In this document: one piece after another, positions 1 to 26,185 of the stretch
Position numbering within the stretch: the stretch's first letter is position 1
How the letters are laid out: every line of letters starts with the position of its first letter
Source of the DNA: Firmicutes bacterium UBA3567
Lineage (GTDB): Bacteria > Bacillota > Thermosediminibacteria > Koleobacterales > UBA3567
Assembly: GCA_002376045.1 (NCBI GenBank)
Contig: DFNM01000195.1
Coordinates: 1-39,210 of the forward strand
DNA: 39,210 nucleotides
Direction: 5' to 3'
Program-made: the position numbers and the translations under genes
The notes under the pieces: model-generated
The model's database searches: none
Seen by the model: only the letters and a program-made list of their open reading frames with translations
What the model was told of the DNA's origin: nothing

Positions 1-1186
1 GCGCCATCAGGCGGTCTACCTTTGTTTCATCCACCCGGATGCTTTTACTCGCAGCAGCAGGAGCAGAAACTTTCGTTCCTTCAGGTTTTCCAGGTCCAGC
101 TGCAATTGAAGTGCCTTCTTTTACAGCCAAACTCCTGGCCATTTTCTCGGCTGCATCAAGGAGTGAAAAGAGTTCTCTCTGTTGTTCAGAACCCGGCTTA
201 TCCAGGAGTTCTTCCGCTTTCTTCAGCTCAAATCTGTTGAAATAATTACCAATCCCTGCCAGGATTCTGGCTACAGAAAGACCATACCGCGGAAAATTTT
301 CCCGGCTCCACGGTTGTCCGAGGTATTCTCTCAACTGGGTCAGAATCAATTGTAAAACTTCTGCTTCCCCCTGATTCAACTGGATATCAGGAGGAGAAAC
401 CGGTTTTTCTTCCACCCGGGACGTCTTTTCTTTTTCACCTGAGTTCTCCGGACCGACATCTTCCGCCCCGGCACAGAGCTCACCTGTTTCCCCAAAAACC
501 GGGCAAACAGTCAGGCGCAGGTCAGGCAAATCTCCTAAAACTTCAGCAAGCGCATTTTCCAATGTACGTGTACTGATGTCAGATCTAAGATAAAAATGCA
601 GGGACAAGAAAGAGGGCATATCCCTCCCTGGGTCAGTATCCAACTCTCCTGCCCCGCTTACCACAGCGCGAACCACCTTTCCGCAGGAAGCCAGCTTTTC
701 ATAAACTGCCAGCAGATTAAGCGATTCGGACGAAGCACACATCTCCAGGCTCACTTCATAAACGCATTCCCCGGGTACCATTTGCGCGGCTGTTTCCGGC
801 ATCTGTGAAACATCGGTCGAACTGGTTTTACTAAACAACTCTTCCAACTTCCCAATCCTTTCCCAGCATGTTTTTTCATCCACCTGCAGCTTGCCTTCTG
901 TTTCTGCTTTTTCCACAACTTCCAGCAAAAACTCAAGGGCACTACTGACAACTTCGGCAAACTGCTCCGATGCATCAATCTCCCCCGTTTTTACCCCCTT
1001 CAGCACCTCAAGCAACCGTTTAGCCAGCTCGTTCAGGACATCATATTCTTTGGTATGTTCTACCAGGGCCTTCATTTTTTCTAAAAGCTGATCAAGTACA
1101 TGGCTATCGGGTTTGCGGACCAGAGAGAAGACTAAAAATCCAGTTTTGTCAAGAACCTCTTTGATTTTTTCCAAAATTTTGTTCAT
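1..1186 (-). CDS. cheA: Chemotaxis histidine kinase CheA, N-terminal part (HPt-like bundle, P2-like segment, start of dimerisation domain); rest of the gene lies beyond the window start
   Basis: Absent from the ORF track because it runs off the edge. The reverse complement from the ATG at 1186 reads MNKILEKIKEVLDK... with no stop and ends ...SKSIRVDETKVDRLMA, which matches the RVDxxK(L/V)DxLM signature that opens the CheA P3 domain. It has an HPt-like helix ALVEHTKEYDVLNELAKRLLEVL. It sits 9 nt downstream of cheY in the che operon. Confidence 0.75.
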   Translation of the reverse strand, partial: MNKILEKIKEVLDKTGFLVFSLVRKPDSHVLDQLLEKMKALVEHTKEYDVLNELAKRLLEVLKGVKTGEIDASEQFAEVVSSALEFLLEVVEKAETEGKLQVDEKTCWERIGKLEELFSKTSSTDVSQMPETAAQMVPGECVYEVSLEMCASSESLNLLAVYEKLASCGKVVRAVVSGAGELDTDPGRDMPSFLSLHFYLRSDISTRTLENALAEVLGDLPDLRLTVCPVFGETGELCAGAEDVGPENSGEKEKTSRVEEKPVSPPDIQLNQGEAEVLQLILTQLREYLGQPWSRENFPRYGLSVARILAGIGNYFNRFELKKAEELLDKPGSEQQRELFSLLDAAEKMARSLAVKEGTSIAAGPGKPEGTKVSAPAAASKSIRVDETKVDRLMA

Positions 1187-1195
1187 TTTCACTTA

Positions 1196-1567
1196 TTACC
1201 TCACTCCAGCAATAATCTTAGTTAGAAAAAGAAGCCTTTCTGGCTTTACCGGTTTTACCAGGAAGAGGTTGGCTCCGGCTCGATATCCTTCCAGGCGGTC
1301 GCTGTCCTTTGCTTCTGTCGAGATGATTATCACCGGCACCCCAACCCCTCTTTCATCCTCTCTAAGCTGCCGCACCAGTTCATAACCTGACATCTTGGGC
1401 ATGTTTATATCCACAATGAAGAAGTCGTAATCAAACTTTACCGCTTTTTCCAGTGCTTCATAACCGTTGGCTGCATGGTCCACAGCAAAACCGGCTTTGC
1501 TTAAGATGGAAGTGTAATAACCCCGTACTGTAGATGAGTCATCCACCACCAGTATGTGTACGCTCAT
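1196..1567 (-). CDS. cheY: CheY-like single-domain response regulator
   Basis: 123 aa. Receiver motifs are present: ILVVDDS, DFFIVDINMPKMSG (phospho-acceptor Asp), PVIIISTE, FLVKP. It has a GAGG RBS and lies between cheR and cheA. Confidence 0.9.
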   Translation of the reverse strand: MSVHILVVDDSSTVRGYYTSILSKAGFAVDHAANGYEALEKAVKFDYDFFIVDINMPKMSGYELVRQLREDERGVGVPVIIISTEAKDSDRLEGYRAGANLFLVKPVKPERLLFLTKIIAGVR

Positions 1568-1579
1568 GTCTTTTTCGCC

Positions 1580-2395
1580 TCACTTTTGATATATAATTGC
1601 ATTCTTAAATTTCCTCAACCTGAAAATAGGTGTAATGCGGCTCATGGATTCCGAGTGCCCGAGGAAAATGTAACCGCCTTTCCTCAGGGCATCGTAAAAG
1701 TAAAGGGCCACTTCTCTGCGTGAAGAGTCGTCAAAGTAGATGAGAACGTTGCGACAGAATATGACATCAAAGTCCACCATCTTCCGCATGTTTTCCCGAT
1801 CCAGAAGGTTGAGTTGATAAAAGTATATCTGCCGGCGCAGTTCTGAACGTATCTCGAACTGTTCACCCATACGTCGAAAATAACGGGCAAGGTAAACCTC
1901 CGGAACGTCTTTGACAGCGCGCCTGCCGTAAAGTCCTTTTTTTGCCTGCAGCAGCACATCTGTATTTAAATCGGTGGCGTGAATTTCCCACGTAACGGGC
2001 ATTCCCCCGGTCATCTCCTTTATGATGATGGCTAAAGTGTAAGCTTCTTCCCCCGTTGAACACCCGGCAGACCAGATGCGTATTCTTTTGGAATTTTGGT
2101 TGTTTTTGCCCTTCAGAATCTCGGGTATTACTTCTTCGGCAAAGCAGCGCAGCTGCTGATACTCCCTGAAAAAGTAGGTCTCATTGACAGTCAGGGCGTT
2201 GAGAAGCTCCTGCAGCTCACGGCCAGAGGTATCAAACCGCATCCAGGCAAAATAGGCACGGAAGCTATCCACGCCGATGGAGCGCATACGCGCTTCCACG
2301 CGTTTTTCCACGTAGTAAAGTTTCTTTTCATCAAAGTAAATCCCGACCTTGCGGTAGATGTAATCCCGAAGCTTAACGAATTCTTCTATAGTCAA
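1580..2395 (-). CDS. cheR: Chemotaxis protein methyltransferase CheR
   Basis: 271 aa. It has the SAM-binding motif RIWSAGCSTGEEAYTLAI and the CheR-typical VNETYFFRE and FCRNVLIYF. TTG start with a GGAGGG RBS 6 nt upstream. Confidence 0.93.
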   Translation of the reverse strand: MTIEEFVKLRDYIYRKVGIYFDEKKLYYVEKRVEARMRSIGVDSFRAYFAWMRFDTSGRELQELLNALTVNETYFFREYQQLRCFAEEVIPEILKGKNNQNSKRIRIWSAGCSTGEEAYTLAIIIKEMTGGMPVTWEIHATDLNTDVLLQAKKGLYGRRAVKDVPEVYLARYFRRMGEQFEIRSELRRQIYFYQLNLLDRENMRKMVDFDVIFCRNVLIYFDDSSRREVALYFYDALRKGGYIFLGHSESMSRITPIFRLRKFKNAIIYQK

Positions 2396-2460
2396 TTCTA
2401 ACCCTCCTCAAGCATCGCGCGGAAAGCTTCCTGCGCGGATAAAAACAGGTTTTCAATCAG

Positions 2461-3039
2461 CTATACCTCCATCTTTCTTAAAGCGACCTCAACCGCATAT
2501 TCCAAAAAAGGATCGGAAAAACGTTCCGCCGCTTTTCGAACTGTTTCCCGGTCATCGCCGCGCAAGCCCATTTCGCCCAGGTATTCCACCGCTGCAGCCA
2601 CCACATTGACATCCTCATCCTCTTCCACTACCCGGCACAAAAGTTCCACTGCCTCCTTGACCTTCAGTTCTCCCAGGACATTCACGGCAAAAAGTCTTAC
2701 ATCCGGGTCAGGGTCCTGCAAGAGCTCCTTGACTACACCCAGTGATGTATGCTGCAGCAGCTGAAGCACCTCTATCGCCGAATTCCTCAGGTAGGCATCT
2801 TCACTGCGCAAAAGCTCAGCACACCGCCTTACCACAGCCTCCGTACCGATTGTAATAAGGGTGCTGACAATGGCTTCCTGTACGGCACGGCTTTTCTCTT
2901 CTACCAGTCTGTTTACCAGATGTTCCACCACGTCTTCCCTGGGAAAATCGGAAAGTTCCATGGCCGCATAGCGTCTCTCCCTCTCTTCCGGGTGGGTGGA
3001 TAGAATTTCCATGAGCTTTTTGACCTTGCTGGTTTTCAA
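2461..3039 (-). CDS. HEAT / PBS-lyase-like repeat protein embedded in the che operon
   Basis: 192 aa of repeated helix pairs: (D/E)xxVRxxAxxALGxxG-like units such as DPDVRLFAVNVLGEL, DAYLRNSAIEVL and DVNVVAAAVEYLGEMG. The TTG start overlaps the cheB stop (TTGA), with an AGGAG upstream. Confidence 0.8.
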   Translation of the reverse strand: MKTSKVKKLMEILSTHPEERERRYAAMELSDFPREDVVEHLVNRLVEEKSRAVQEAIVSTLITIGTEAVVRRCAELLRSEDAYLRNSAIEVLQLLQHTSLGVVKELLQDPDPDVRLFAVNVLGELKVKEAVELLCRVVEEDEDVNVVAAAVEYLGEMGLRGDDRETVRKAAERFSDPFLEYAVEVALRKMEV

Positions 3040-4088
3040 TTTCTCTTCACTCCTTTAATGATTTGCTGGGCAATGCGATAGGACGGAGCTACCACCTCGG
3101 CTCCTCCTCTGAGGTAAGTCTCCCTGGGCATACCCCAGACCACCGCAGTTTCTTCCGCTTCAGCTATGGTGTAGCCGCCGCGTTTTCTTATTTCCACCAT
3201 CATATCCGCTCCATCATCACCCATACCTGTAAGTATTACCCCTACTATATCCCGGGGAGGCACTTTTTCTAAAACTGACTGTATTGTTATATTAACCGAA
3301 GGAACATATAAAGCACCCGCCGGCTGGCGGCTGAGCCTGGTTACCAGCCCACCACCGGTATTCTTTTCTATTTTTAAATGATAGCCCCCTCTGGCCACCA
3401 AAACCTTTCCCGGCATTAATTCATCACCATCTGCCGCTTCTTTGACGGCTACCTGGCAGCTCTGGTCCAGGCGCCGGGCAAAAGATGCCGTAAAGTTTTC
3501 CGGCATGTGCTGCACTACCAGCACCGCTGCCGGGAGGTCCTGGGGCAGGTAGGGCAAAATATCCATAAGGGTACGGGGACCTCCGGTCGATACCCCAATG
3601 ACCACCACTTTCAGCGAATGCTGCCCGATACCCGACCTGAATCGGGGACGAGGTGGCCGGGGAGCCAAAGCATGTGCCTTTTCCGGCCGGCGCGGCCTTA
3701 ACTTGGCCCGTGCCGCTGCTTTAACCTTTGCTATAAGCTCTTCTTTGAGCTGTTTTATGCCGAGGGAAATCGTCCCTCCGGGTTTGCCCACAAAATCCAC
3801 CGCACCCAGCTCTAAAGCTTCCAGTGTGGTGAAGGCACCCTCCTGGGTGAGAGAAGAAACCATAATCACCGAGCAGGGTGCCTTAAGGAGGATGTACTGG
3901 AGGGCAGTGAGGCCATCCATCACAGGCATATTCACGTCCATGGTAACCACATCAGGTCTTAGCTCCAGTGCCTTTGTTACTGCCTCTTTACCGTCACGGG
4001 CAGTATCCACCACCTCTATTTGATCATCTGAAGCAAGCATTTCCATAAGGATTCTCCTCATAAGAGCAGAATCGTCAGCTATCAACAC
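3036..4088 (-). CDS. cheB: Protein-glutamate methylesterase CheB (receiver + methylesterase)
   Basis: Receiver domain (RVLIADDSALMRR, DVVTMDVNMPVMDG) plus methylesterase domain (VVIGVSTGGP, VVQHMP, LTGMGDDGA). The track ORF extends to 4169, but that extension overlaps the cheW gene and is non-homologous. GTG at 4088 has an AGGAG 8 nt upstream and gives the canonical MLIADDS start. Confidence 0.9.
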   Translation of the reverse strand: MLIADDSALMRRILMEMLASDDQIEVVDTARDGKEAVTKALELRPDVVTMDVNMPVMDGLTALQYILLKAPCSVIMVSSLTQEGAFTTLEALELGAVDFVGKPGGTISLGIKQLKEELIAKVKAAARAKLRPRRPEKAHALAPRPPRPRFRSGIGQHSLKVVVIGVSTGGPRTLMDILPYLPQDLPAAVLVVQHMPENFTASFARRLDQSCQVAVKEAADGDELMPGKVLVARGGYHLKIEKNTGGGLVTRLSRQPAGALYVPSVNITIQSVLEKVPPRDIVGVILTGMGDDGADMMVEIRKRGGYTIAEAEETAVVWGMPRETYLRGGAEVVAPSYRIAQQIIKGVKRN

Positions 4089-5607
4089 CCGTATTCTCCT
4101 GGAGTTCCACGTTCTGCTCAAAGTCTGCCAGCTCCTCCTTTTCTCTAAACGATAGGACTTCCTTAACATTCAACACGATGATCAGCCGCTCGCCTTCTTC
4201 TGCTTTAGCTATTCCCCTGACAAAGCGGCTGTCTACCGAAGCGGTCAGGAGATCCGGCGCTGTTTCGATGACCTTACGGAAAACCTTCAGCACTTCCTGC
4301 ACCGAGTCAACGACAAGACCGGTCAAAAGCCCGTCCATCTCTACTACGACGACTTTTGTGTACTCATCCCTGGATTTTTCTTCCATCTCGAATCTTTTTC
4401 TGAGGTCGATTACAGGGATTATGGTTCCGCGAAGGTTAATTACCCCTTCAACAAACTGCGGAGCTTTGGGAACGGCCACTATATCCGGAACCCTGATGAT
4501 TTCCCGAACATCAGCGATGCCGGCTGCAAATTCTTCTTCACCCAGCTTGAAAATCACCAGCTGTTCTTCCTGTTCACTGGTATTGACCACTTCTCCTTCT
4601 TCTTCGCTGTCCAAAACCCCACCCACTTTCAGGAGGTCATTTAAGGCAAGAAAACCTGTCGGGTCAAGCACGTATACCAGCCGCTTGCCTTCTGCCATCT
4701 TGCACACTCCATTTATTCCTTCACCACTCCCGGTGCGCAGCAGCACCGGTACGGGGTCAATAATCGCTCTGGGAATGCGGAGCACCTCTGTCACCTCATC
4801 GGCTATCAGACCCACTGTAACCTCCCCTTTCCGCTGATCGTAAAGGTTCACCACTACTATACGCGTTCGGTCATTCACTTTACCATCTTCCAGTTTGAAA
4901 AGGGTTCGCAAGCTGACCACCGGCAGAACCCGGTTCCGAAGGGTCATAATTCCAACAAGATAAGGGGGGGCATCGGGTAGCCGGTTAATGTTCTCCGGCA
5001 TGTGGACAATCTCCTGCACCATGCCTATGTCAATTCCGTACTCCTCTTTCCCGAGCCGAAAGGCGACGAGTTGAACTTTGTCTTCCTCTTTTTCTTCATC
5101 TTTTTTTTGTTCTTCTGTTCGTGTAAACCCCTGGGATTCAACGGTATCTGCTGTCATACCCCCGTTTTTCCCGATCTTCATAAAGTGAGCTACATCCATT
5201 AACATTATAAGGTGTTCGCTTCCAGCCAGCCTGGCTATCCCCTTGAGAAACTCTGTCCTGGCCTCACCCTCCCTAACCTCTTCAATTTCATCAGCGGCTA
5301 TGTTTACCACCTCGGATACTCTGTCCACAATGAAACCCAGCCTTTTCTGGCCGTCGTCCAGGACTATAACCCTGCTGGTTTCGTTCAGGGGCTTCTTTTC
5401 CATACCAAGCCTGACACTCATGTTCACTATGGTGAGAATGTTTCCCCGCAGGTTGGCCAGCCCTTCCAGATAGGGCGGGGTGCGGGGAACCTTCACCATC
5501 CCAGGGACACGAATTATCTCCTGGACAAACTCGATTTCCACGCCATAAGCTTCGCTGCCTACATAAAAGACAACATACTGCCCGGCAGCCCGTTTGTTTT
5601 GCTGCAC
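4075..5607 (-). CDS. cheW: Scaffold protein with three tandem CheW domains
   Basis: 510 aa. Three collinear CheW-like modules start at QYVVFYVGSEAYGVEI, VQLVAFRLGKEEYGIDI and EQLVIFKLGEEEFAAGI. Each is followed by PxxP(Y/F)(L/V)xG(I/L/V)xNLRG-type and (I/V)VDxVxEV motifs. GTG start with a GGAGGGA RBS. Confidence 0.88.
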   Translation of the reverse strand: MQQNKRAAGQYVVFYVGSEAYGVEIEFVQEIIRVPGMVKVPRTPPYLEGLANLRGNILTIVNMSVRLGMEKKPLNETSRVIVLDDGQKRLGFIVDRVSEVVNIAADEIEEVREGEARTEFLKGIARLAGSEHLIMLMDVAHFMKIGKNGGMTADTVESQGFTRTEEQKKDEEKEEDKVQLVAFRLGKEEYGIDIGMVQEIVHMPENINRLPDAPPYLVGIMTLRNRVLPVVSLRTLFKLEDGKVNDRTRIVVVNLYDQRKGEVTVGLIADEVTEVLRIPRAIIDPVPVLLRTGSGEGINGVCKMAEGKRLVYVLDPTGFLALNDLLKVGGVLDSEEEGEVVNTSEQEEQLVIFKLGEEEFAAGIADVREIIRVPDIVAVPKAPQFVEGVINLRGTIIPVIDLRKRFEMEEKSRDEYTKVVVVEMDGLLTGLVVDSVQEVLKVFRKVIETAPDLLTASVDSRFVRGIAKAEEGERLIIVLNVKEVLSFREKEELADFEQNVELQENTGVDS

Positions 5608-5621
5608 AAACCATCCCTCCT

Positions 5622-7559
5622 CTAAAGCTGCTGCAGCTCGTCTGCCAGTGCAGCTATCTCTTCAGCAGCTCTGGACAGCTCTCCCATTCCCTGGGCCTGC
5701 TGCCTGCTGGCACTTGCAGCCTGTTCAGAGGCCGAGGCTGCTTCCTGGGCTGCCTGGGCAATTTGCTCCACAGCCTTTTTAACCTGTTCGGCAGCAGCTG
5801 CCACCTGGGCCGCACTTTCAATTAATTTTCTGGTTTTATCCAAAACCATCTTTATGTCCGCTTCAATACGCACCAGGTCTTGAGTAGTCTTTTTCGCCTT
5901 TTCTACCTCCTGACTTGTTGCTTCTCCTATCTCTTCAATGTCCCTTAATACCATGCCAACCTGACCCTGGATGTTCTTCACCAGCTCCTTGATCTGCTCG
6001 GTGTTACGGGCGCTCTCCTGAGCCAGGTTGCGGATATCGGATGCAACCACGGCAAACCCCTTGCCGTACTCACCAGCTCGGGCCGCCTCAATAGCCCCAC
6101 TGACTGCCAGCATATTGGTCTGGATGCTTACAGTATTAATTGCCTCCACTATCTTATCTATCTGCCTTGCCCTTTCTTCTAAAGCCTCAACCTTCCTGGC
6201 ATTTTCAACATTGGCCTCCAAAGCCCCAGAAATCCCTTTAATCAGTTCATCAATGCTGACTTTGTTGCGGGTCTGGACCTCAGACAGTTTTTCTACCTTC
6301 TCCTCGACAACTTTTGCCAGTTCATCAATTTGCCTGGCCCTGTCTTCTGCCTGGCCGGCGGCACTGGCACACTCTTCTGCTGCCATTGCCTGAGTTTGAG
6401 CTCCTTTTGAAATTTGGTCCAAGGCAGCCATGATTTCCTGGGCAGAGCGGGTAGACTCCTCAATCGCCGCTGAAAGCTCCTCCGCTGCGGCGGCCAGGCC
6501 TTCTGCCGATTTGGAAACTTCAGTAGACCTCATGAGGTCTTCACCCATTTCGGCCAGCTCACTTGCCGCTGTGCTGATATCGCTTAAAGCTCTTGTCTGC
6601 TGTTCCACCGCTTTTAATGCTTCCTCCGCCCCACTGGCCTGTTCCTCCGCTGCCCTGGCAATTTCACCTGCTCTCTGCCGGAATTGTTGAGCGCTGCGTA
6701 CAGATTCCTGAGAAGCATCATAAGCCTCTGTCACTGCTTCAAAAACGTCTTGCATAGCGCCAGCCGCTTCTTTCAACTCTTTGGTAATTACTTTGCCTTT
6801 CTCCGCTTCTTGCCGCGCATTGGCGGCAACCTGGTTAATGGCATCGGCCACCACTTTGACATCCTGCTGGATGGCCTGGATAAGCTCGCGGATGTCGTTG
6901 GCTGCCTTCTCTGATGTTGCCGCTAGAGTTCTTACCTCATCCGCTACCACAGCAAACCCCTTGCCGTGATCCCCGGCCCGGGCCGCCTCAATGGCAGCAT
7001 TAAGGGCCAGGAGGTTGGTCTGGTCGGCAATTTTTACCACGGTACGCACAATATCTCCAATGTTTTCTGCCTGCTTCTCCAGCTCAGCTACCAGTCTGGC
7101 CGAGCCTTCATTCCTCTCACTGGCAGCATTAACACCATCTATTAGTTTTTCGATATCGGAATTTATTTCTTTCATTAAAAACTGAACGGTCTTTGCCCCT
7201 TCTGAGATCTCAGAGGCATTCTCCCCTGCTCCTTGAGCTCCTTCGGTCGCTTGTTCAGCAGCTGCCAGCGTCTCCTGGGTGGCGCTGCTGGCCTCCTCAG
7301 CCCCACTGGCTATTTGCTCCATAGCCGACCTCAGTTCCTCCACTGCCCCGGATGCTTCTTCTACTCCGGCGGAAAGCTCTTCGGTAGCTGCGGCGATCCG
7401 TTCAGCTATCTGCTGCTGCTTGGCAAATGTCCTGGCCTTTCTGCGCTGAGTTTCAAGCTTCTTTTTCTCAACCTTCTTCAACTCAAAATTCGCTTTGTTC
7501 TCGTTCTTTTGGTCCTCTGCCTTTGCTGGCAGCGGTGCCAACTTTCTCTCCTCAACCAT
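5622..7559 (-). CDS. Soluble methyl-accepting chemotaxis protein with two signalling (hairpin-tip) domains
   Basis: 645 aa, with no hydrophobic segment anywhere. Two copies of the MCP tip motif are present: [37 protein letters not shown] and [40 protein letters not shown] start with an AAGGAGG RBS. Confidence 0.9.
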
Positions 7560-7793
7560 TAAACAATACCTCCTTAAATTTTATATTAATTTAATTTTTT
7601 TCATATATGGTCATTCCATTAACTCAACAGCTTTCTTCCAATCTGCTTATTTGCAAATAAAGCAGGGAAAACTTTTGATTTTTCAAATTGATTTCCATAC
7701 TAAGTGGTAAGGCTTAACTTTTTAGCACGCACTTCAACCTAGAAAAAATTTTGCTGAGTTAAATGCATAACCATATAAATTTTTAAATTTTTT

Positions 7794-8390
7794 TCATACA
7801 TACAAAGCTCTTCTGTCTGCTTTTAATCTACCGGCACGTGTCGACCCTGTCTCCCACATGCTGCGGAACACCTCAAACACTGCCGGATCAAACTGCCCTC
7901 TGCTTTCTGCCATAATCTCTAAAGCCCTACCGGGTTCGACCGGTCTGCGGTAAGGCCGGTAGCCGGTCAACGCCTCAAAGGCATCAACAACGGCAATCAT
8001 TCTGGCTACTAAAGGTATCTCCTCTCCTGCCAGGCCGTATAAATATCCATCACCGTCAAATCTCTCGTGATGGTAGAGAGCACCCATTATTATTTCTTCC
8101 ACAAACCCCAGGCTTTTGAGCAGTATTCCACCAATGTGAACATGTTGCTTCATTTCCTCCCGGTCAGCTTCGGTATATCTCTCACGGGACTTAAGCAGCC
8201 GGTCGGAAATGCCGATTTTGCCAATGTCGTGCAGAAGCCCTGCCTTATAGAAAGTCGATACCCTCCCTTCCCTCATGCCCCAGGTTTCTGCTAAACGTGC
8301 TAAATGATTTGCCACTTTGCGGCTATGGTCTGCACTCACCCGGTCTCTGGCCGCCAGGGCAAAAAAAAGTACTATGTCATATCCTACCAT
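7794..8390 (-). CDS. HD-GYP domain protein (probable c-di-GMP phosphodiesterase, stand-alone catalytic domain)
   Basis: LLHDIGKIG and HHERFDGDGYLYGL motifs. The track ORF starts at 8459, but the ATG at 8390 (MVGYDIV...) has GGAGGAATTTT directly upstream, and the extra 23 aa look non-homologous. Confidence 0.85.
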   Translation of the reverse strand: MVGYDIVLFFALAARDRVSADHSRKVANHLARLAETWGMREGRVSTFYKAGLLHDIGKIGISDRLLKSRERYTEADREEMKQHVHIGGILLKSLGFVEEIIMGALYHHERFDGDGYLYGLAGEEIPLVARMIAVVDAFEALTGYRPYRRPVEPGRALEIMAESRGQFDPAVFEVFRSMWETGSTRAGRLKADRRALYV

Positions 8391-8459: not shown

Positions 8460-8678
8460 TTACGCTAATCCTGTAAAAACATTTTTTTGATATGTTCTGG
8501 CATTCTGTTGTTTTTTCTCTTTTTTTTTATTTTGGGTTACAAATCCATACTTTTTCAAATACCTTTGTATGGTCCTGCGACTAACTTTACATATCAACGC
8601 TATTTCTTCACAGCTCAGTTTTTTTTCGATGTATTGTTTTCTCAGCCACTCTTTATCCCAGTATGGTTGCAACTTCAA
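8460..8678 (-). CDS. Small helix-turn-helix protein (mobile-element-type HTH)
   Basis: 72 aa. The motif WDKEWLRKQYIEKKLSCEEIALICKVSRRTIQRYLKKYG is a typical short HTH module seen in phage/IS-associated proteins, followed by a Lys-rich tail. It lies in an AT-rich region and no clear RBS was checked. Confidence 0.45.
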   Translation of the reverse strand: MKLQPYWDKEWLRKQYIEKKLSCEEIALICKVSRRTIQRYLKKYGFVTQNKKKEKKQQNARTYQKNVFTGLA

Positions 8679-9093: not shown

Positions 9094-9609
9094 ATGTTGA
9101 ATACATTTGGAAATATTGCTGCAGCAAGAATCAAAGGAGGGCCTCTTGCTCCAAATATAAGAGGAGTTGTCTGGTTTTACCCTGCCCTTTATGGGACAAA
9201 TGTGTGTGTAGAAGTAAGGGGGCTGCCTCCGTATCAATCTGCCGAAAACGGCAAACCTCCCATCGGCCCCCATGGCTTTCACATACATGAGCTTGGCAAC
9301 TGTAAGATATGTGACCCTGTAGATCCTTTTAAAGCAGCTGGAGGACACTGGAATCCCTGCAATCAACCCCATGGAAACCATGCGGGGGATTTTCCCGTGC
9401 TTTTTTCAAACCATGGTCTGGCACGAATGTGCTTTTTTACCGATAAGTTCACGGTAAAGAATGTTGTAGGAAAAGCCGTTATTATTCATCAAAACCCCGA
9501 TGATTACCGTTCCCAACCCGCTGGAAATGCTGGAAAACGGCTGGCATGCGGAGTTATTAAATGGTATTATCCATCTGCATGGTGGTTTTACAGCACAATC
9601 AATCCATAA
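9094..9609 (+). CDS. sodC: Cu/Zn superoxide dismutase family protein, no signal peptide
   Basis: 171 aa. Motifs GFHIHELGNC, AGGHWNP...HGNHAGDFP, IIHQNPDDY and GKRLACGVI match the Cu/Zn ligand pattern of the Sod_Cu family. GAGGTGG RBS 7 nt before the ATG. Confidence 0.85.
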   Translation: MLNTFGNIAAARIKGGPLAPNIRGVVWFYPALYGTNVCVEVRGLPPYQSAENGKPPIGPHGFHIHELGNCKICDPVDPFKAAGGHWNPCNQPHGNHAGDFPVLFSNHGLARMCFFTDKFTVKNVVGKAVIIHQNPDDYRSQPAGNAGKRLACGVIKWYYPSAWWFYSTINP

Positions 9610-9957
9610 AAGCAAAAGGAAGAAAATCGCTGCAAAAACCAGACCGCCAGGAATTTTTAAGAATATTTCAGGCGCAGTGATGAACGTAAGAGATGGACCG
9701 CTCGTTGCTTCCAAACCAACGGCAAGAGCAGCTGGTATGATGACCATCCCGGCCAAAAGACCTGCTGTTGTATCTCCTATAGCTGTAAATAGGGCATTCT
9801 GAGGGATGTTTTCTTTTTTTGACATGTAACTCGCATAACACATCATAAAGGTGCCACCTAGACTTAATGAAAAGAAAGCCTGACCCAACGCTCCTAAAAC
9901 CGTTGAACCTGTAATTTTGGGAAAATCCGGCATCAGATAGAATATCCAAGGCATCAA
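9604..9957 (-). pseudogene. Internal fragment of a neurotransmitter:sodium symporter (NSS/SNF) family transporter gene
   Basis: IFYLMPDFPKI...GQAFFSLSLGGTFMMCYASYMSKKENI...SGPSLTFITAPEIFLKIPGG...FFLLLL is the mid-portion of NSS transporters. A stop lies 3 codons upstream of the fragment. Homology ends exactly where the convergent SOD gene ends, and the rest of track ORF 9406..9957 is antisense to sodC. Confidence 0.7.
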
Positions 9958-13229: not shown

Positions 13230-13970
13230 ATGGTATTAAAATTTGATAGACAAGAAATCGGTGAGGATGATATAACTAATGCATTTCCTGAAAAAATCAG
13301 TGGTAAAGAATGGATAAAATACTCAATTAGTGTATGGGATGATTATAAAACCAAAGAAGAAAGTTTGTATAAGCATCCCGCATCTTTTCCTGTTAATCTA
13401 GTACATAAATTAATTCGAATATACACAAAACCTAAAGAAATAATTATTGACCCGTTTATGGGTATGGGAAGTTCTTTAGTTGCAGCCGCCAAGTTAAACA
13501 GGCGAAGTATTGGTTTTGAGATTAACAAGGATTTCATTAAAACCGGGTATAGTAGATTGCAAAAATACAACTGTCAATTTAAAATCATTGACGACTCTTG
13601 TTTAAATATTGAAAACTATATACCGGTCAATTCTATCGATTTTTGCATTACTTCACCACCATATTGGAATATTTTAAACCGCAAACGTAGTGCCGATTGT
13701 AAAAAAATCAGAAACTACGGTAATGAGAAAAGAGATTTGAGTAATATAAAAAGCTATGACAAGTTTCTAACTCAAATACAAAAAGTATTTTCAAAAATTT
13801 ACATACTACAAGAATTATCACATGCAAATATTATCAATTTTGGGTTTAAAAAACACAAATTATGCAACCCTAAAAATAAGGTAATACGTAAACGCAAACC
13901 AATTAATACGGATGAACATTCTTCTAACTTACCTGTTAAAATTCGAGGAATTCACTTCAACGCATTCTAG
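13230..13970 (+). CDS. N4/N6 DNA methyltransferase (SPPY catalytic motif, so possibly m4C), orphan and possibly C-terminally degenerate
   Basis: HPASFPVNLVHKLI...IIDPFMGMGSS (motif X + motif I) comes before DFCITSPPYW (motif IV). The last ~50 aa are Lys-rich and show no recognisable motifs. The gene lies in a visibly AT-rich block. Confidence 0.72.
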   Translation: MVLKFDRQEIGEDDITNAFPEKISGKEWIKYSISVWDDYKTKEESLYKHPASFPVNLVHKLIRIYTKPKEIIIDPFMGMGSSLVAAAKLNRRSIGFEINKDFIKTGYSRLQKYNCQFKIIDDSCLNIENYIPVNSIDFCITSPPYWNILNRKRSADCKKIRNYGNEKRDLSNIKSYDKFLTQIQKVFSKIYILQELSHANIINFGFKKHKLCNPKNKVIRKRKPINTDEHSSNLPVKIRGIHFNAF

Positions 13971-19118: not shown

Positions 19119-20408
19119 TCAGCATTCTTTGTTGAGTTCTGTACTTCGCGATACACCATCCAGCATTTTAAACAGCTCATCAATGTATTTTACGGTTTTG
19201 GCACCATTTCTGATTAAATCTCTATAAATTTCCACAGCTTTTCCACCGGTGTAATCCTTCCCGCCTATAGGGGTTGTATCAATGAGTATAACCTGTTTCC
19301 CCCTCTGCTGGGCTTTCTGCACAGCCAGCAGATTGTTGAAATTTCCCTTTCCAAAGGGAATATTTGCCACAACGATCACATCTGCATCCTCCATTAATTT
19401 CAAAGCCTTTTCCATATTTTGCGTAGTTACCGGTGAAAAAGGTGGTGCTTCTACCATGGGAATCTTCAAAAACCTTGCCTTCTCCCAGTCTCCGTCCCCC
19501 ACATTTATTGTCCCTACGCTCAATTTATAACCCTGGTAAACTAACATCTCCATTAAAGCACAGGCAATTCCCCCACCACAGACAAGGTGAATTTTGATTT
19601 TGCTATTTCCGGCTTTTTTCTGCTTCTGGGCCAATAATGTCACATGGGGGCATTTGTAAATGGGATGTTGTTTTATTATAACTCTGCTGTTGTAAACATC
19701 CATGATGTTTTTCTCGGTGATAACCTGTTCCGGCTGACCTGCTGCATAGATCTTCCCCTGGTGGAGCAGGATCAGCTGGTCACAATACTGGGCAGCCAGA
19801 TTTAAATCATGAAGCACAACGATAATAGTAAGATTTTGAGTTGTATTCAGGTCTTTGAGAAGGTCCATTATTTCAATCTGATAGTTTATATCAAGGTGTG
19901 AGGTGGGTTCGTCTAAAAGCAGCACCCGGGGTTCCTGGGCCAAAGCCCTGGCTATTACAACCCGCTGACATTCACCACCACTGAGTTCTGTTATCAATCT
20001 ATCTTTCAAATGTTTGGTTTTTGTCACTTCCAGTGCCCAATCTACTATTTTGTAATCCTGTGCGGTTTCTCTCTGCAATCTCCCGATATAGGGATTTCTC
20101 CCCATCAACACAACTTCCTCTACAGTAAATTCAAAGGGAATATCTGTTTTCTGAGTTACAACAGCCATCTGCCTTGCCAGTTCCCTGGGAGTTATAGAAT
20201 ATACATTTATTCCCCGCAGATGCACGCTCCCCTGAAGGGGTTTCAAAACCCTGCTAATGGTTTTTAAGAGGGTTGACTTGCCCGAGCCATTGGGGCCTAT
20301 GATCCCTAAAAAATCCCCTTTTCTTATAGCAAACTGAATATCCTTCAATACCGGTTCTGCAGCATATGAACACGTTATTTCCAACACATTGACAACAATT
20401 TCAGACAC
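19119..20408 (-). CDS. FecE/BtuD-type ABC ATPase fused to a ~165-aa uncharacterised C-terminal domain
   Basis: N-terminal 260 aa: GPNGSGKST, LSGGECQRVVIARAL, LLLDEPTSHLD, VLHDLN. The C-terminal extension KIKIHLVCGGGIACALMEML...VVANIPFGKGNFNNL...ILIDTTPIGGKDYTGG looks like a Rossmann/flavodoxin-like alpha/beta domain. Confidence 0.88.
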   Translation of the reverse strand: MSEIVVNVLEITCSYAAEPVLKDIQFAIRKGDFLGIIGPNGSGKSTLLKTISRVLKPLQGSVHLRGINVYSITPRELARQMAVVTQKTDIPFEFTVEEVVLMGRNPYIGRLQRETAQDYKIVDWALEVTKTKHLKDRLITELSGGECQRVVIARALAQEPRVLLLDEPTSHLDINYQIEIMDLLKDLNTTQNLTIIVVLHDLNLAAQYCDQLILLHQGKIYAAGQPEQVITEKNIMDVYNSRVIIKQHPIYKCPHVTLLAQKQKKAGNSKIKIHLVCGGGIACALMEMLVYQGYKLSVGTINVGDGDWEKARFLKIPMVEAPPFSPVTTQNMEKALKLMEDADVIVVANIPFGKGNFNNLLAVQKAQQRGKQVILIDTTPIGGKDYTGGKAVEIYRDLIRNGAKTVKYIDELFKMLDGVSRSTELNKEC

Positions 20409-20477
20409 TCTGTTTCCCCCTTTAGCAGCTCCATCAACCGACCACTATACCCGCCCTGCTCGACTTAAATCAAACTT

Positions 20478-21506
20478 TCAAGAACTTTTTTTCTTTTTTA
20501 AAAGATATATAAAAAACGGGCCTCCGAACAGGGCTGTAACGATTCCCACTGGAAGCTCTGTAGGAGATATTACGACCCTTGCCAGAGTATCTGCAAGCAG
20601 TAGAAACACTCCTCCAGTTAGTGCTGATGCGGGAAGCAGCCAGCGGTTATCCGGACCTATTATAAGTCTTACGACATGGGGAATAATCAGACCAACAAAC
20701 CCGATTAATCCAGCGGACGCCACAGCAGCAGCCGTTAAAATCGAGGCTGCCGCCAGTAAAATCCTTTTAACCCTCTCTACATCTATACCCAGGTGTGCAG
20801 CTGTATCTTCTCCCAACAAAAGTATGTTTAAATCTTTTGAATACACAAAAGCCACTGCCATGCCTACTGCAAAATACATGGAAGAAGATACTACATAATT
20901 CCAGCCTCTTGAAGCAAGGCTCCCCATCATCCAGAAAACAACATGCCCCAGCTTGTTTCCACTGAAATATATCAGCAGCGAAACGACAGCGGAAAGAAAG
21001 GCACTCACAGCTATACCTGAAAGCAAAAGGATTAAAACCGGAACCCGCTGACCTACCCGAGCCATGTTGTATACCAGAAAAACAGTGAAAAGGGATGTGA
21101 AAAAAGCCATTAAGGATACTGCTCCTACACCCAGAAAAGTGAGGTTCAGGGAAAACACTATAGCAAGGGCGGCCCCAAGAGATGCTCCTGATGAAGCACC
21201 GATGATATAGGGGCCTGCCATGGGATTTTTGAATATACCCTGGTAGATGGCTCCTGCCACACTCAGCGAAGCCCCTACCAGCACTGCCAGCAAGTTTCTG
21301 GGCATTCTGATCATAAGTATAATAGTTTCATGTGTGGGTTTCCAGGTGTTGGCTATTGCATTACCTACAATGGGCAGTTTGCTGATTAAAATTTTAAAGA
21401 CTTTTTCCCCATCGATGGGAACACTTCCTATGCTGTTTGTGAATATTATAGCAAAACACAGCAATAAAAGCACCGTCAAAACATAATTTTTTTTGTTTTT
21501 TATCAT
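20478..21506 (-). CDS. FecCD-family permease (BtuC-like)
   Basis: 342 aa, about 9-10 TM helices. FecCD hallmarks are present: MPRNLLAVLVGASLSVAGAIYQG, NPMAGPYIIGASSGASLGA and GIVTALFGGPFFIYLL. Confidence 0.9.
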   Translation of the reverse strand: MIKNKKNYVLTVLLLLCFAIIFTNSIGSVPIDGEKVFKILISKLPIVGNAIANTWKPTHETIILMIRMPRNLLAVLVGASLSVAGAIYQGIFKNPMAGPYIIGASSGASLGAALAIVFSLNLTFLGVGAVSLMAFFTSLFTVFLVYNMARVGQRVPVLILLLSGIAVSAFLSAVVSLLIYFSGNKLGHVVFWMMGSLASRGWNYVVSSSMYFAVGMAVAFVYSKDLNILLLGEDTAAHLGIDVERVKRILLAAASILTAAAVASAGLIGFVGLIIPHVVRLIIGPDNRWLLPASALTGGVFLLLADTLARVVISPTELPVGIVTALFGGPFFIYLLKKKKSS

Positions 21507-21533
21507 GGATGGCCACCTTTTAAAGGAATTCGA

Positions 21534-22496
21534 TTATTTCGCCAGCTCAGGATGGATGTATTCAAAGAACTTTTCCAGAGCATCTACGATTCTCGGACCG
21601 GGACGGTTAACAATATCAGGGTCGATACCGTATATTTTGCCCTGTTTTATGGCGGTTATGTTTTGCCATCCAGGCCTGTCAGCTATGTTCTCTATCTTGT
21701 TCGAACCATGATCATACTGATGAATAATTATATCAGGGTTTCTTTCGATAACCACTTCCTCACTGAGCTTTGGATATTTACCTTCGGCATCTCCTGCTAA
21801 GTTGATACCTCCTGCAAGGGTTATAAGGCTGTCAACAAAGCTGCCGGGACCCGCTGACATCACCGGATCGTCCCACAGTTCATAGTAAACCAGAGGTTTG
21901 TCTTCTTCTTTCAGCTTCTCAGTCTTTTCTTTTACAGCTTCAATCCTGCTCTGCATATCAGCCGTCAGCTGCCCGGCGGCTTCAGACCGGCCAGTAGCAT
22001 CTCCAACCTTCTTTATTGAATTTATTATCTCGGATATATTGGACGGATTTACTACGAATACGGAAATATCAAGCTTTTCAAGCTGTTCCACCGTTTTTTT
22101 GTGCATTGAGGTGGCAAAAACCAGGTCCGGTTCAAGCTCAACAATTTTTTCAATATTGGGTTCACTAAAACTTCCTACTTTTGTTTTGGTAAGGGCTTCC
22201 TCGGGATAATTGCAGTACTCCGTTACACCCACAATTTGGTCTGTAAGTTCCAGAGCGAAAAGTATTTCCGTGTTGGAAGGAGCAAGAGATACAATCCTCT
22301 GAGGCTGTTTGTTTATAACAACCTCTCTGCCCATATCATCCACTATGGTTTTGGGAAATTCCTGGGACTGTTCTTTATCATTATCATTAACTTTTGTCAA
22401 TTGAGTTTGACCGCAGCCAGCAGTCAAAACCGCAATCAAAATTATCAATAAAGCAGCTACAACAATGACTGTTTTGTTCCGGTTCATTTTCATCAT
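21534..22496 (-). CDS. Periplasmic-binding-protein type 2 lipoprotein (BtuF-like substrate-binding protein)
   Basis: Signal peptide with the lipobox LTAGCG. RIVSLAPSNTEILFALELTDQIVGVTEYCNYP and EPDLVFA are typical of BtuF/FhuD-class binders. It is the first gene after a cobalamin riboswitch. Confidence 0.88.
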   Translation of the reverse strand: MMKMNRNKTVIVVAALLIILIAVLTAGCGQTQLTKVNDNDKEQSQEFPKTIVDDMGREVVINKQPQRIVSLAPSNTEILFALELTDQIVGVTEYCNYPEEALTKTKVGSFSEPNIEKIVELEPDLVFATSMHKKTVEQLEKLDISVFVVNPSNISEIINSIKKVGDATGRSEAAGQLTADMQSRIEAVKEKTEKLKEEDKPLVYYELWDDPVMSAGPGSFVDSLITLAGGINLAGDAEGKYPKLSEEVVIERNPDIIIHQYDHGSNKIENIADRPGWQNITAIKQGKIYGIDPDIVNRPGPRIVDALEKFFEYIHPELAK

Positions 22497-22674
22497 CCTT
22501 TCTTAAATTCTCAAAGGTTTATCAATAATCCTCCCAGGTACCAACCTGGGTATTCTGTGTTTCCCTATATTATTTAAAAGCTTCTATGCCTCAACGCTTT
22601 TGATACAAATAAAAAAAGCGGCAGCTAACCAGAGTAAGTATATGCATTTACTCATCCCTTTCCTCGAGGGTATT

Positions 22675-22915
22675 GTATTTTTTCGGCAGGTTTCCTGGCT
22701 TCCGAATCATGGCCTGTCGACGCCTTTCCGCCCGGCCCGGCTCAATCTGGTAACAGACCTGTCGGTTTCATCATAACTAATGCAGCAATAAACAAAAGTG
22801 TTTTTGTAAAACTTAAAACAATCTTTGGATTGAGTGCCCGAAGTCGACTTACTTTCCGGTACAGTGGCAGGTCCACTCGGGATTCTTACCTGATTCCCTT
22901 CTTCATACTATACTG
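22675..22915 (-). promoter_or_regulatory. Cobalamin (B12) riboswitch
   Basis: The minus strand reads AAGGGAAUCAGGUAAGAAUCCCGAGUGGACCUGCCACUGUACCGG, then a long variable insert, then the B12 box GAAGCCAGGAAACCUGCCG. It lies upstream of the BtuFCD-like operon. Confidence 0.85.
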
Positions 22916-22992
22916 AATTCTGTTTAAATTTTCATCCAGCCTGGGTTTTCTAAAAATAAATAAATGCTCATGCATTATCAAAAGAATGTTAT

Positions 22993-23266: not shown

Positions 23267-23524
23267 TTATTTATAATTAGATATGTAAAAATACTCTTTA
23301 GATGTTTTATAGTTTTTATCCAACTTATAACAAAACACCTCATCAAAATTTGTTTCTTTTAAATACGTATACATCTCTAAAAGATTTCTAAAAGCATCTT
23401 TAGCGTCTATTCCCGATGAAAATCCGATCACTTGCAAATTATCAATATCTGGTAAAATAGATTCTGAATTGGGTTGAAATGTATATCCTTCAATTGTTAA
23501 AAAAATATAATTATTTATATCCAT
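23267..23524 (-). CDS. Hypothetical 85-aa protein, translationally coupled to the upstream HKD nuclease gene
   Basis: Intact ORF whose ATG overlaps the last 10 nt of the nuclease gene. No family was recognised. Same AT-rich composition as its neighbour. Confidence 0.6.
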   Translation of the reverse strand: MDINNYIFLTIEGYTFQPNSESILPDIDNLQVIGFSSGIDAKDAFRNLLEMYTYLKETNFDEVFCYKLDKNYKTSKEYFYISNYK

Positions 23525-24327
23525 AATTTCATATACCTTCCTTTACCTAAAAATTTTATTAACCCTAAATCCCTAAGGTTTTGCAGTTGCTGTCGTATTT
23601 TTGCTTCGATGTTTTGATTTTCCGGATATATACATTGGAAATAGGCCTTATATTGATAGACATCGTTTAATTCAAAGATAAACTTATCAATTTTGTTTAT
23701 TTGCTTAAATACTGCTAGCTTCCAACCTGAAAGGCAACTTTCTATAGTTTTCACGCCCCCAGTATATAAGTCATCTTGCGGAATATCCTTACCAATAAAG
23801 CTATCTAAATTTATATTATGAGGAAATTTGTACTTTTTTTCTGTAGGAATATTACTAAGAATATCACTAACAGTATTTACAATTTCTTTAGTAACCTCAC
23901 CGCTAAATTCACTGCAGAAAATAGAATTAAAATCTTTACATACCTTGTCTACAAAAACATAATCATTCGAAAGAATACCATACTCATAATTGTAGCTTAA
24001 TCCATAATTTGTAAGATTAGCCGAGGTCACAATAACTACTTTTTTATCAAAAATACAAATTTTAGCATGCAAATTTTGGTAATTTCTTACCCTTCCGTTT
24101 TTATCTAAAATATAATCTATTGCTTCAATATCGGAAGCTCTTTTATAAAAACTTGAAAGATTAAAATTGGTAATTAGATCAAAATCCACCTTCTCCTTTT
24201 TATATTTGTAGATTTCTTCTATAACATCGTATTTGATAAAAGGAGAACAAATTTGAATACTCTCGATTGTTCCAGAAACACATTGTATAAATTTATTTTT
24301 CCATGGGCTATTAATAATTTCTAACAT
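23515..24327 (-). CDS. Phospholipase-D (HKD) superfamily nuclease with a C-terminal winged-helix-like domain
   Basis: A single exact HKD motif, HAKICIFDKKVVIVTSAN, fits HxK-x4-D-x6-(G/T)SxN. The C-terminus AKIRQQLQNLRDLGLIKFLGKGRYMKLW resembles the DNA-binding winged helix found at the ends of many restriction endonucleases. Confidence 0.8.
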   Translation of the reverse strand: MLEIINSPWKNKFIQCVSGTIESIQICSPFIKYDVIEEIYKYKKEKVDFDLITNFNLSSFYKRASDIEAIDYILDKNGRVRNYQNLHAKICIFDKKVVIVTSANLTNYGLSYNYEYGILSNDYVFVDKVCKDFNSIFCSEFSGEVTKEIVNTVSDILSNIPTEKKYKFPHNINLDSFIGKDIPQDDLYTGGVKTIESCLSGWKLAVFKQINKIDKFIFELNDVYQYKAYFQCIYPENQNIEAKIRQQLQNLRDLGLIKFLGKGRYMKLWI

Positions 24328-26054: not shown

Positions 26055-26185
26055 CTGGCAATCCCCTGGAAAGCTTACGAGGTTAGCTGACGGATTCGGG
26101 TCCAGGTAACCCTACCTTTCACAAGAAAGGATTCACCCCAAATGATGGTTCCCCCGCTTCTTAAAAAAGAATTCAGCTTAAGGCT
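26055..26185 (-). promoter_or_regulatory. c-di-AMP riboswitch (ydaO-yuaA motif)
   Basis: The minus strand reads GAAGCGGGGGAACCAUCAUUUGGGGUGAAUCCUUUCUUGUGAAAGGUAGGGUUACCUGGACCCGAAUCCGUCAGCUAACCUCGUAAGCUUUCCAGGGGA. It carries the conserved GCGGGGGA, GGGGUGAAUCC, GGUAGGG and CCCGAAyCCGUCAGCUAACCUCGUAAGC blocks of the ydaO motif. Confidence 0.88.

Follow-up and report, generated by a model that had tools for sequence, protein, structure and literature searches.

The chemosensory genes that fill the first 8390 nucleotides (nt) of a 39,210-nt stretch of DNA from Firmicutes bacterium UBA3567, referred to here as the window, raise the question of what kind of signalling system they encode and of how its kinase passes on phosphoryl groups. 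The reading adopted here, which is given a probability of roughly 80%, is that the region is an F9-class chemosensory system with an in-trans bipartite kinase, located on an acquired island in an Anoxybacter-like thermophilic Firmicute. Positions are those of the window, and the chemosensory genes all lie on the minus strand at 1–8390. The DNA beyond window position 1 was read from contig CAJXZW010000026.1 (GCA_913063815.1) of a metagenome-assembled genome (MAG), called L001 below; the window is the reverse complement of a part of L001, and window position 1 corresponds to L001 position 15607. Gene identities were taken from Pfam and NCBIfam matches to the translations of open reading frames (ORFs), and junction lengths from the gene calls on L001.

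It has been reported that the receptor DosM, which has a double signalling domain, and the triple CheW protein CheW3 together form the signature of the F9 class in the Wuichet–Zhulin scheme (PMC7534058, PMC9321776). In Vibrio cholerae, cryo-electron tomography revealed F9 arrays that lie wholly in the cytoplasm and have two layers, which DosM stabilises by spanning two CheA/CheW baseplates (PMC7534058, PMC9321776). Both signature proteins are encoded in the window. The DosM-type methyl-accepting chemotaxis protein (MCP; 5622–7559, 645 amino acids (aa)) has two MCPsignal stretches, and its halves, offset by exactly 300 residues, can be aligned gap-free over 293 residues with 36% identity; the tip motif EAARAG(D/E)xGKGF is found at residues 191 and 491. 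Residues 54–346 align end to end with the soluble MCP 2ch7 from Thermotoga maritima, and the protein consists of two complete signalling hairpins in tandem. A sensor domain is absent, as is reported for 98% of DosM homologues (PMC9321776). The spacing of about 300 residues between the tips recurs, within 1–2 residues, in every DosM from the other loci surveyed, and several sites resembling the methylation consensus are present. No 19-residue window of DosM rises above 0.95 on the Kyte–Doolittle scale, and segments resembling transmembrane (TM) helices are absent from all proteins of the cluster, the only 19-residue windows above 1.6 being two in the P5 domain of CheA. The double-tip receptor without TM helices that a preliminary description of this DNA had proposed is thus borne out. 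CheW3 (4075–5607, 510 aa) contains three Pfam CheW domains (E 1.4e-98). In addition, a basic motif, RR(K/R)ART(L/F)AKQQQ, was observed at about residues 30–51 of DosM (window 7400–7559), before the first coiled-coil arm; it is kept in every DosM homologue of all phyla surveyed (L005–L028), and no description of it was found in the literature.

These proteins could also join ordinary membrane-bound arrays by way of TM MCPs encoded elsewhere, instead of building a cytoplasmic array of their own. Because no product of the operon is a receptor with a sensor domain, partners from elsewhere are needed, and cluster I of V. cholerae includes the gene for a TM receptor (VC1394), possibly a member of another array (PMC7534058). 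However, a TM-less receptor with a tip at both ends cannot anchor one end in a membrane, and DosM of V. cholerae spans two baseplates in a purely cytoplasmic array (PMC7534058). Membrane-bound assembly is therefore considered very improbable.

The signature genes belong to a run of eight co-directional genes placed where the preliminary description had put them, and the run is tight or overlapping from the MCP gene to cheA. The cheW3 gene begins 14 nt after the MCP gene and overlaps cheB by 47 nt; cheB (3036–4121, longest ORF to 4169; CheB_methylest at E 3e-58 with Response_reg, and NCBIfam CheB at 402 bits) overlaps by 4 nt a gene for a 192-aa HEAT-repeat protein (2461–3039; Pfam HEAT_2, E 2.8e-27). 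This is followed after 65 nt by the methyltransferase gene cheR (1580–2395; Pfam CheR, E 1e-59, with CheR_N), after another 12 nt by cheY, which encodes a single-domain response regulator of F9 type (1196–1567; Pfam Response_reg, E 7e-29), and after 9 nt by the 5' part of cheA (1–1186, codons 1–395). The CheB triad motifs GVSTGGP, VQHMP and GMGDDG are visible in the translation, and catalytic motifs are likewise present in CheY. The preliminary description had counted CheA within the operon, which is correct for these 395 codons; its kinase domains, and the separate gene for Hpt-P2, are found past window position 1. It had also placed an HD-GYP gene immediately upstream in the same orientation; such a gene is found at 7794–8390 (198 aa from its ATG; Pfam HD_5, E 4.7e-35), although an AT-rich spacer of 234 nt (7560–7793) separates it from dosM. 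The ribosome-binding site AAGGAGG lies 8 nt before the dosM ATG, and a scan of the minus strand of the spacer revealed no sigma-70-like promoter or terminator. As had been noted for the neighbourhood, flagellar genes are absent, and so are further che genes, from the 31 kb that make up the rest of the window; the ORFs of at least 120 aa with a family match between 8.5 and 39 kb encode transporters, oxidoreductases, a restriction-type nuclease and integrase fragments, and two ORFs have no match. On L001, the Hpt-P2 gene past cheA is followed by small ORFs of low GC content, with no MCP after it.

The gene order itself points to F9. A total of 80 loci were fetched with a CheW3 profile and annotated with the window proteins as queries, the best match being 38% identical; these loci include neither this genome nor Anoxybacter, and close relatives were obtained through exact-protein look-ups. 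The order DosM-CheW3-CheB-HEAT-CheR-CheY-CheA, whose search in other genomes the preliminary description had suggested, recurs unchanged in V. cholerae (L021) and at no fewer than 11 further loci of several phyla, with representatives in Thalassolituus, Methylomarinum, a betaproteobacterium, Aureimonas, KSB1, Spirochaetota, Actinomycetota, Myxococcota and Desulfohalobiaceae. It corresponds to '[DosMW3B.RYA]', the commonest F9 gene order according to Mo et al. 2022 (S5/S6 tables, PMC9321776), who recorded the full F9 set in 15 of 492 Firmicutes species and inferred frequent horizontal transfer of F9 clusters (PMC9321776). Cluster I of V. cholerae (DosM VC1403, triple CheW VC1402, CheA VC1397) shares the seven-gene order with the window; its DosM is 641 aa long (645 aa in the window), both proteins having their tips about 300 residues apart and no TM segments, the CheW3 proteins are 32% identical over their full length (residues 10–493), and the CheA cores match at 324 bits. 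The V. cholerae cluster differs in continuing with an ORF of about 80 aa, a second CheY and an MCP, all three of which are absent from the window cluster, and dosM is not preceded by an HD-GYP gene anywhere in its 21.5-kb locus.

The individual proteins show the same affinity. The CheA core scores 305–379 bits against CheAs of proteobacterial, KSB1 and Desulfohalobiaceae F9 loci, 247–264 bits against F9-locus CheAs of Spirochaetota, Actinomycetota and delta-proteobacteria, and 266–290 bits against Bacillota CheAs encoded beside a single CheW. In a neighbour-joining tree of 38 CheA cores, which carries no bootstrap values, the window clade falls inside the F9-context group, apart from the single-CheW Bacillota CheAs. 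Similarly, CheY matches the same-position CheYs of the V. cholerae and Thalassolituus F9 clusters at 118–126 bits, compared with only about 55 bits for REC genes beside Bacillota CheA-CheW clusters. A homologue of the HEAT-repeat gene stands between cheB and cheR, as in the window, in 14 further F9 loci of several phyla, that of V. cholerae (L021) among them, and the gene is the unnamed '.' between these genes in the published F9 orders; the ratio of non-synonymous to synonymous substitution rates (dN/dS) of this protein is 0.10–0.15. A sequence search of the PDB gave no matches for it other than HEAT-repeat proteins of unassigned function, almost all of which are designed alphaRep proteins, and no mention of a HEAT-repeat protein in F9 clusters was found in the literature.

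Thus, the tandem-signalling TM-less receptor, CheW3, the gene order and the grouping of the CheA core are all F9 features, and the F9 feature that is lacking is an Hpt domain in cis; because a separate Hpt-P2 gene follows cheA, this lack is treated as variation within F9 and not as a ground for exclusion. The preliminary description had taken the parts list to indicate a cytoplasmic array, and the match to V. cholerae, with DosM and CheW3 defining F9, supports it. It had named as contrary evidence an ordinary flagellar F-class assignment with a membrane MCP encoded beside cheA, or TM helices in the MCP; the class is nominally an 'F' class, yet neither a membrane MCP beside cheA nor a TM helix was found. 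Its claim that the combination is uncharacterised in Firmicutes does not hold, since '[DosMW3B.RYA]' is tabulated for Firmicutes including Anoxybacter fermentans (PMC9321776), strain DY22613 of which is listed with F1 and F9 systems and with flagella (Mo et al. 2022, S6 table, PMC9321776). The locus is a well-preserved copy of an already catalogued F9 cluster, the combination itself is not new, and the locus adds little to the F9 class because its gene order had been catalogued in the nearest named relative. No experimental study of any Firmicute F9 system was found in the literature.

What distinguishes the locus is its kinase. The full CheA on L001 has 772 aa, with an N-terminal region of about 380 aa that has no Pfam match, followed by P3-P4-P5 (H-kinase_dim, HATPase_c, CheW); the start of the P3 dimerisation domain (KSIRVDETKVDRLMA) is at window positions 1–49, and P3-P4-P5 run past the window. 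A Pfam Hpt domain is absent from this protein and from its nine clade relatives, whereas it is present in cis in 11 of 11 complete F9 CheAs surveyed from other phyla, that of V. cholerae (residues 1–104) being an example. A homologue search gave 290 CheAs at E <=1e-10; among the best 120 of these, only the ten closest align past the kinase core, these ten lack Hpt, and nearly all of the remainder carry it. The N-terminal region resolves into three parts in an AlphaFold2 model, the numbering of which equals the protein numbering minus one. Codons 1–120 (827–1186) form an Hpt-like helical bundle with Lys39 in the column of the phosphorylated histidine, with a predicted local distance difference test (pLDDT) score mostly of 85–94; codons 140–230 (497–769) are modelled as a P2-like beta-alpha-beta-beta-alpha-beta domain; and codons 271–355 (122–376) form a four-helix module, with model helices at 271–352 and pLDDT of about 70–85. 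In a hhalign comparison with F9 CheA N-termini (probability 93.9, E 1.6e-7), the histidine of the latter stands opposite Lys39, a position occupied by K, N or R in the clade, and no invariant histidine is found in the CheA N-terminus among eight clade members. Foldseek aligned this pseudo-P1 with CheA P1 structures at a TM-score of 0.79–0.82 and an rmsd (root-mean-square deviation) of 2.0–2.2 Å, and the P2-like domain with P2 of T. maritima CheA (1u0s) at a TM-score of 0.71, the E-value being weak. BLASTP of the N-terminal 393 aa against the Thalassolituus F9 CheA recovered only the edge of P3, and the kinship emerged by profile–profile alignment alone.

This region is under purifying selection, with dN/dS of 0.16–0.20 for the pseudo-P1, 0.26–0.45 for the P2-like domain and 0.14–0.18 for the four-helix module; the same applies to every gene of the cluster, the values falling at 0.08–0.23. 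The family of the N-terminal region is small: four matches, three of them full length, were found among 1.84 billion representative proteins, and only three 50%-identity clusters are full length. Taken as a whole, these comparisons mark the N-terminal 380 aa of CheA as more than a random linker.

The phospho-accepting domain that CheA lacks is found in the next gene. A separate gene encoding a 324-aa Hpt-P2 (P1-P2) protein starts on L001 15 nt past the cheA stop codon, outside the window, and it also lies downstream of cheA in A. fermentans, Desulfofundulus and MAGs, while in MAG locus L090 it begins at the contig end. Its His50 is invariant in 12 homologues, and its model aligns with the P1 structure 1tqg at 38% identity and a TM-score of 0.89 and with the P2 structure 1u0s at a TM-score of 0.82. 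A separate Hpt gene in the operon is what Berry et al. 2023 use to define a bipartite CheA, and the arrangement is kept in four other lineages. The protein ends in a conserved alpha/beta module of about 75 aa, modelled as beta-alpha three times; a Foldseek search with the whole P1-P2 model was dominated by P1 and P2 matches. The module resembles a STAS domain by eye and in the AlphaFold2 model, but an identity with STAS was not retained, the hhalign E-values against the STAS domains of neighbouring RsbR- and RsbS-like genes being 0.075 and 0.27, which is not significant.

The preliminary description had called the pathway self-contained, which does not hold: DosM has no sensor domain, so that the operon lacks a sensor of its own, and the P1 that accepts the phosphoryl group is encoded in a separate gene outside the window.

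In general, bipartite CheAs with Hpt as a separate operon gene have been noted, and the studied precedent is CheA3/CheA4 of Rhodobacter (Cereibacter) sphaeroides (PMC10782961). There, as with liberated P1 of Escherichia coli, P1 and kinase core belong to separate polypeptides whose genes share one operon, as they do here (PMC10782961). The likeness to CheA3/CheA4 extends to a degenerate set of CheA domains kept by one partner and to the setting in a cytoplasmic array (PMC10782961). However, the degenerate domains are on the P1-bearing CheA3 in R. sphaeroides, CheA4 being a bare core, and on the kinase here; the free protein here, unlike its R. sphaeroides counterpart, consists of P1-P2 with the C-terminal module of about 75 aa; and no report of DosM or CheW3 in the R. 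sphaeroides system was found in the literature. The closest named relative, A. fermentans DY22613 (CheA 77% and Hpt-P2 protein 75% identical), shares with the window organism the '[DosMW3B.RYA]' order, the His-less CheA and the separate Hpt-P2 gene. The table of Mo et al. 2022 (PMC9321776) records 'A' for A. fermentans and mentions neither the bipartite kinase nor the downstream Hpt-P2 gene, and neither Anoxybacter nor Desulfofundulus is mentioned in the supplements of Berry et al. 2023. The bipartite arrangement with HD-GYP first is confined to a small clade composed of this organism, Anoxybacter, Desulfofundulus and a few MAGs.

The origin of the free protein can be approached through its P1, which scores 74–84 bits against P1 of single-CheW Bacillota CheAs and 31–63 bits against F9 CheA P1. 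It is 38% identical to P1 of T. maritima CheA and 29% identical to the P1 of Thalassolituus F9, and the P2 of the free protein is shared only by Bacillota-type CheAs. Because the free P1 resembles Firmicute/Thermotoga-type P1 more than F9 P1, these comparisons suggest that P1-P2 was recruited from a resident Firmicute-type CheA. A more far-reaching proposal, which we put forward only tentatively, is that this F9 sub-clade has re-wired its kinase: the His-less P1 would be under selection as a pseudo-substrate or regulatory domain, phosphotransfer would pass through a free P1-P2 shuttle derived from a Firmicute-type CheA, and HD-GYP would be the ancestral first gene.

By homology to the V. cholerae system, DosM dimers would form rods with a signalling tip at each end, and each tip would dock into a baseplate of CheW3 and CheA P5 to give a membrane-free, two-layer sandwich array. 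Since DosM has no sensor domain, sensing would have to be supplied by soluble MCPs whose genes lie elsewhere and which co-assemble with DosM; in V. cholerae, DosM fills only every other trimer (PMC7534058). The loss of the phospho-accepting histidine from the P1-like domain of CheA leads us to infer that the kinase core acts in trans, His50 of the free 324-aa P1-P2 protein being the residue that it phosphorylates, a step with which the invariance of His50 and the R. sphaeroides precedent agree. The P1-P2 protein would then hand the phosphoryl group to CheY and CheB, and CheR and CheB would adapt the receptors by methylation. The output of F9 is not established even in V. cholerae (PMC7534058).

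One candidate output is flagellar control. The P1-P2 shuttle or the F9 CheY could cross-talk with a resident F1 pathway, so that the array would act as an internal-state (energy or stress) input to swimming. The Bacillota-type P1 and P2 of the free protein described above favour such cross-talk, and A. fermentans combines F1 and F9 with a full flagellar set, which also counts against an output other than motility; 97% of F9 species are flagellated (PMC9321776). Moreover, the cytoplasmic CheA3/CheA4 cluster of R. sphaeroides controls the flagellar motor (PMC10782961). However, no flagellar genes were seen in about 50 kb, and deletion of the F9 cheA of V. cholerae gave no motility phenotype under standard conditions (PMC7534058). 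Flagellar control is therefore held as a possible but doubtful explanation of the output.

The HD-GYP gene raises another candidate. It encodes a stand-alone domain, for which Pfam detects no REC or other recognisable regulatory domain; the motifs DHS, HDIGK, HVH, HHERFDGDGY and VVDAF are seen by eye, and the protein reads GYL, not GYP, while a Desulfofundulus paralogue carries GYP. An intact homologue lies directly upstream of dosM in MAG locus L090 (177 bits). In A. fermentans, the gene at the same place is a 5'-truncated remnant with 69% identity, and in Desulfofundulus the upstream copy is a 42-aa vestige with 71% identity; downstream of the cluster, Desulfofundulus has a second HD-GYP (42% identity), an extra CheY and MCP-CZB. 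This distribution makes HD-GYP the ancestral first gene of the cluster in this sub-clade, which suggests a link to cyclic di-GMP. The F9 CheY or free P1-P2 might thus control the stand-alone HD-GYP in the style of alternative-cellular-function systems, the output being second-messenger turnover and not motility; the preliminary description had likewise proposed an output of the alternative-cellular-function kind. In favour of this are the intact upstream gene in the window and L090, the traces in the two other lineages, the downstream gene set of Desulfofundulus, the occurrence of REC-HD-GYP or HD-GYP near CheW3 clusters in KSB1 (L012), Bacillota (L015, L019) and Actinomycetota (L025), a GC content of HD-GYP that is that of the island, and the fact that in V. 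cholerae only F6 is known to control flagella (PMC7534058). On the other hand, the window HD-GYP has no domain through which it could be seen to be regulated, stands 234 nt from dosM, is decayed in two of four lineages and is missing from most F9 loci surveyed, so that control of second-messenger turnover likewise appears less probable than not.

The block from HD-GYP through Hpt-P2 differs in composition from its surroundings, with a GC content of 0.46–0.53 compared with 0.31–0.40 in both flanks; HD-GYP itself has 0.50, and within the window the che/HD-GYP block has about 0.50 compared with 0.39 at 8700–39210. The A. fermentans cluster shows the same, with 0.46 against 0.30–0.38 around it, and lies between different flanking genes. 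Composition and context thus indicate a horizontally acquired GC-rich island of about 10.5 kb with HD-GYP as its first gene. At the upstream edge, a 72-aa helix-turn-helix ORF (8460–8678, minus strand) has weak HTH/TnsD Pfam matches and a GC content of 0.32, and at the other edge a paralogous 74-aa ORF (L001:18123-18347) lies in the same orientation, is also low in GC and is 43% identical to it (E 8e-16); the pair may be remnants of the element that moved the island.

An acquired island could also be a non-functional relic of horizontal transfer, in which the His-less CheA and the decayed HD-GYP copies are signs of erosion. The GC-rich island with different flanking genes in relatives, the HD-GYP remnants in two lineages and the loss of the phospho-accepting histidine from the CheA N-terminus fit this picture. 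However, four lineages carry all nine genes intact, every gene has a low dN/dS, the pseudo-P1 included, a functional-looking P1 with the invariant His50 is kept beside the kinase, and the translations of CheB, CheY and HD-GYP show their catalytic motifs. Erosion of this kind is considered most unlikely.

Several points weigh against an F9 system with an in-trans bipartite kinase on an acquired island. The F9 placement is based on architecture, gene order and a neighbour-joining tree without bootstrap values rather than on the MiST/Wuichet–Zhulin class HMMs (hidden Markov models), for which the published assignment of A. fermentans is the nearest substitute. Foldseek matched the pseudo-P1 and the P2-like domain at weak E-values (5e-3 to 8e-2), and the assignment of these domains rests on TM-scores and hhalign. 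Array formation, trans-phosphorylation and adaptation are all proposed by homology, the Firmicute system being known here from its genes, and no co-assembling sensory MCP was identified within the roughly 50 kb examined. Finally, HD-GYP is dispensable for the core system, as shown by its decay in A. fermentans and by that of the upstream copy in Desulfofundulus.

The function of F9 is still obscure even though the cytoplasmic arrays of V. cholerae have been imaged, and the locus offers three handles on it. The first is a naturally split kinase, in which free P1-P2 could be used to trace where phosphoryl groups go. The second is a pseudo-P1 under purifying selection, which may reveal how P1 docks on the kinase or regulates it. 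The third is a pair of conserved, unstudied accessory genes, the HEAT-repeat gene in F9 clusters of all phyla surveyed and the HD-GYP gene in this sub-clade. All three are workable in the cultivable A. fermentans and Desulfofundulus. If the tentative proposal of a re-wired kinase is true, the free shuttle would let a cytoplasmic F9 array reach outside targets, either the resident F1/flagellar pathway or cyclic di-GMP turnover, and the long-missing F9 output would gain a testable handle in a cultivable thermophile.

Some further observations concern F9-like clusters elsewhere. Four loci of the survey (L017–L020, from an Eubacteriales MAG, Petroclostridium sp. X23 and Bacillota MAGs) have a CheW3 gene with no detectable DosM, and carry a larger HEAT-repeat protein (620–690 aa) and an extra separate Hpt protein (400–490 aa); their layout is a different F9-like arrangement. 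An HD-GYP gene is found downstream in L019 and likewise in the separate Bacillota MAG locus L015. Directly 3' of cheA in proteobacterial and Desulfohalobiaceae F9 clusters, a conserved ORF of about 80 aa (MPIxY...EEAexLxeWL...vdL...H.HtAvLQ) was seen at L007:13060-13308, L010, L013, L021:16793, L022 and L036, and it corresponds to the second '.' of the published orders. It matches no Pfam family significantly, with one sub-threshold BRK match (E 0.003). Its equivalence to the C-terminal module of about 75 aa in the P1-P2 protein was also considered and dropped, the hhalign E-value of 0.078 (0.47 for a reversed control) being not significant.

Meanwhile, RsbR/RsbS/RsbT-like genes of stressosome type (STAS, STAS, HATPase_c_2) lie at L001:19220-20788, about 1.5 kb past Hpt-P2. 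A link between these genes and the cluster was rejected, and the neighbourhood is treated as coincidental because it is not conserved in A. fermentans or Desulfofundulus.

Elsewhere in the window, an N6/N4 DNA methyltransferase (13230–13970, plus strand), a PLD-type nuclease with a DpnI-like C-terminal domain (23515–24327, minus strand), a PRiA4_ORF3-like protein (34958–35365, minus strand) and an N-terminal integrase fragment (37776–38237, plus strand) together hint at additional mobile or restriction-modification DNA. The gene for a Cu/Zn superoxide dismutase (9094–9609, plus strand) overlaps a hydrophobic 183-aa ORF on the opposite strand (9406–9957, minus). Two riboswitches were also found on the minus strand. 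A cobalamin riboswitch (22668–22932, 43.9 bits) lies upstream of an operon for a periplasmic binding protein, a FecCD permease and an ABC ATPase (19119–22496), which presumably serves B12 uptake, and a cyclic di-AMP (ydaO-type) riboswitch (26057–26188, 101.7 bits) lies upstream of a gene resembling octopine/nopaline dehydrogenase (24823–25971).

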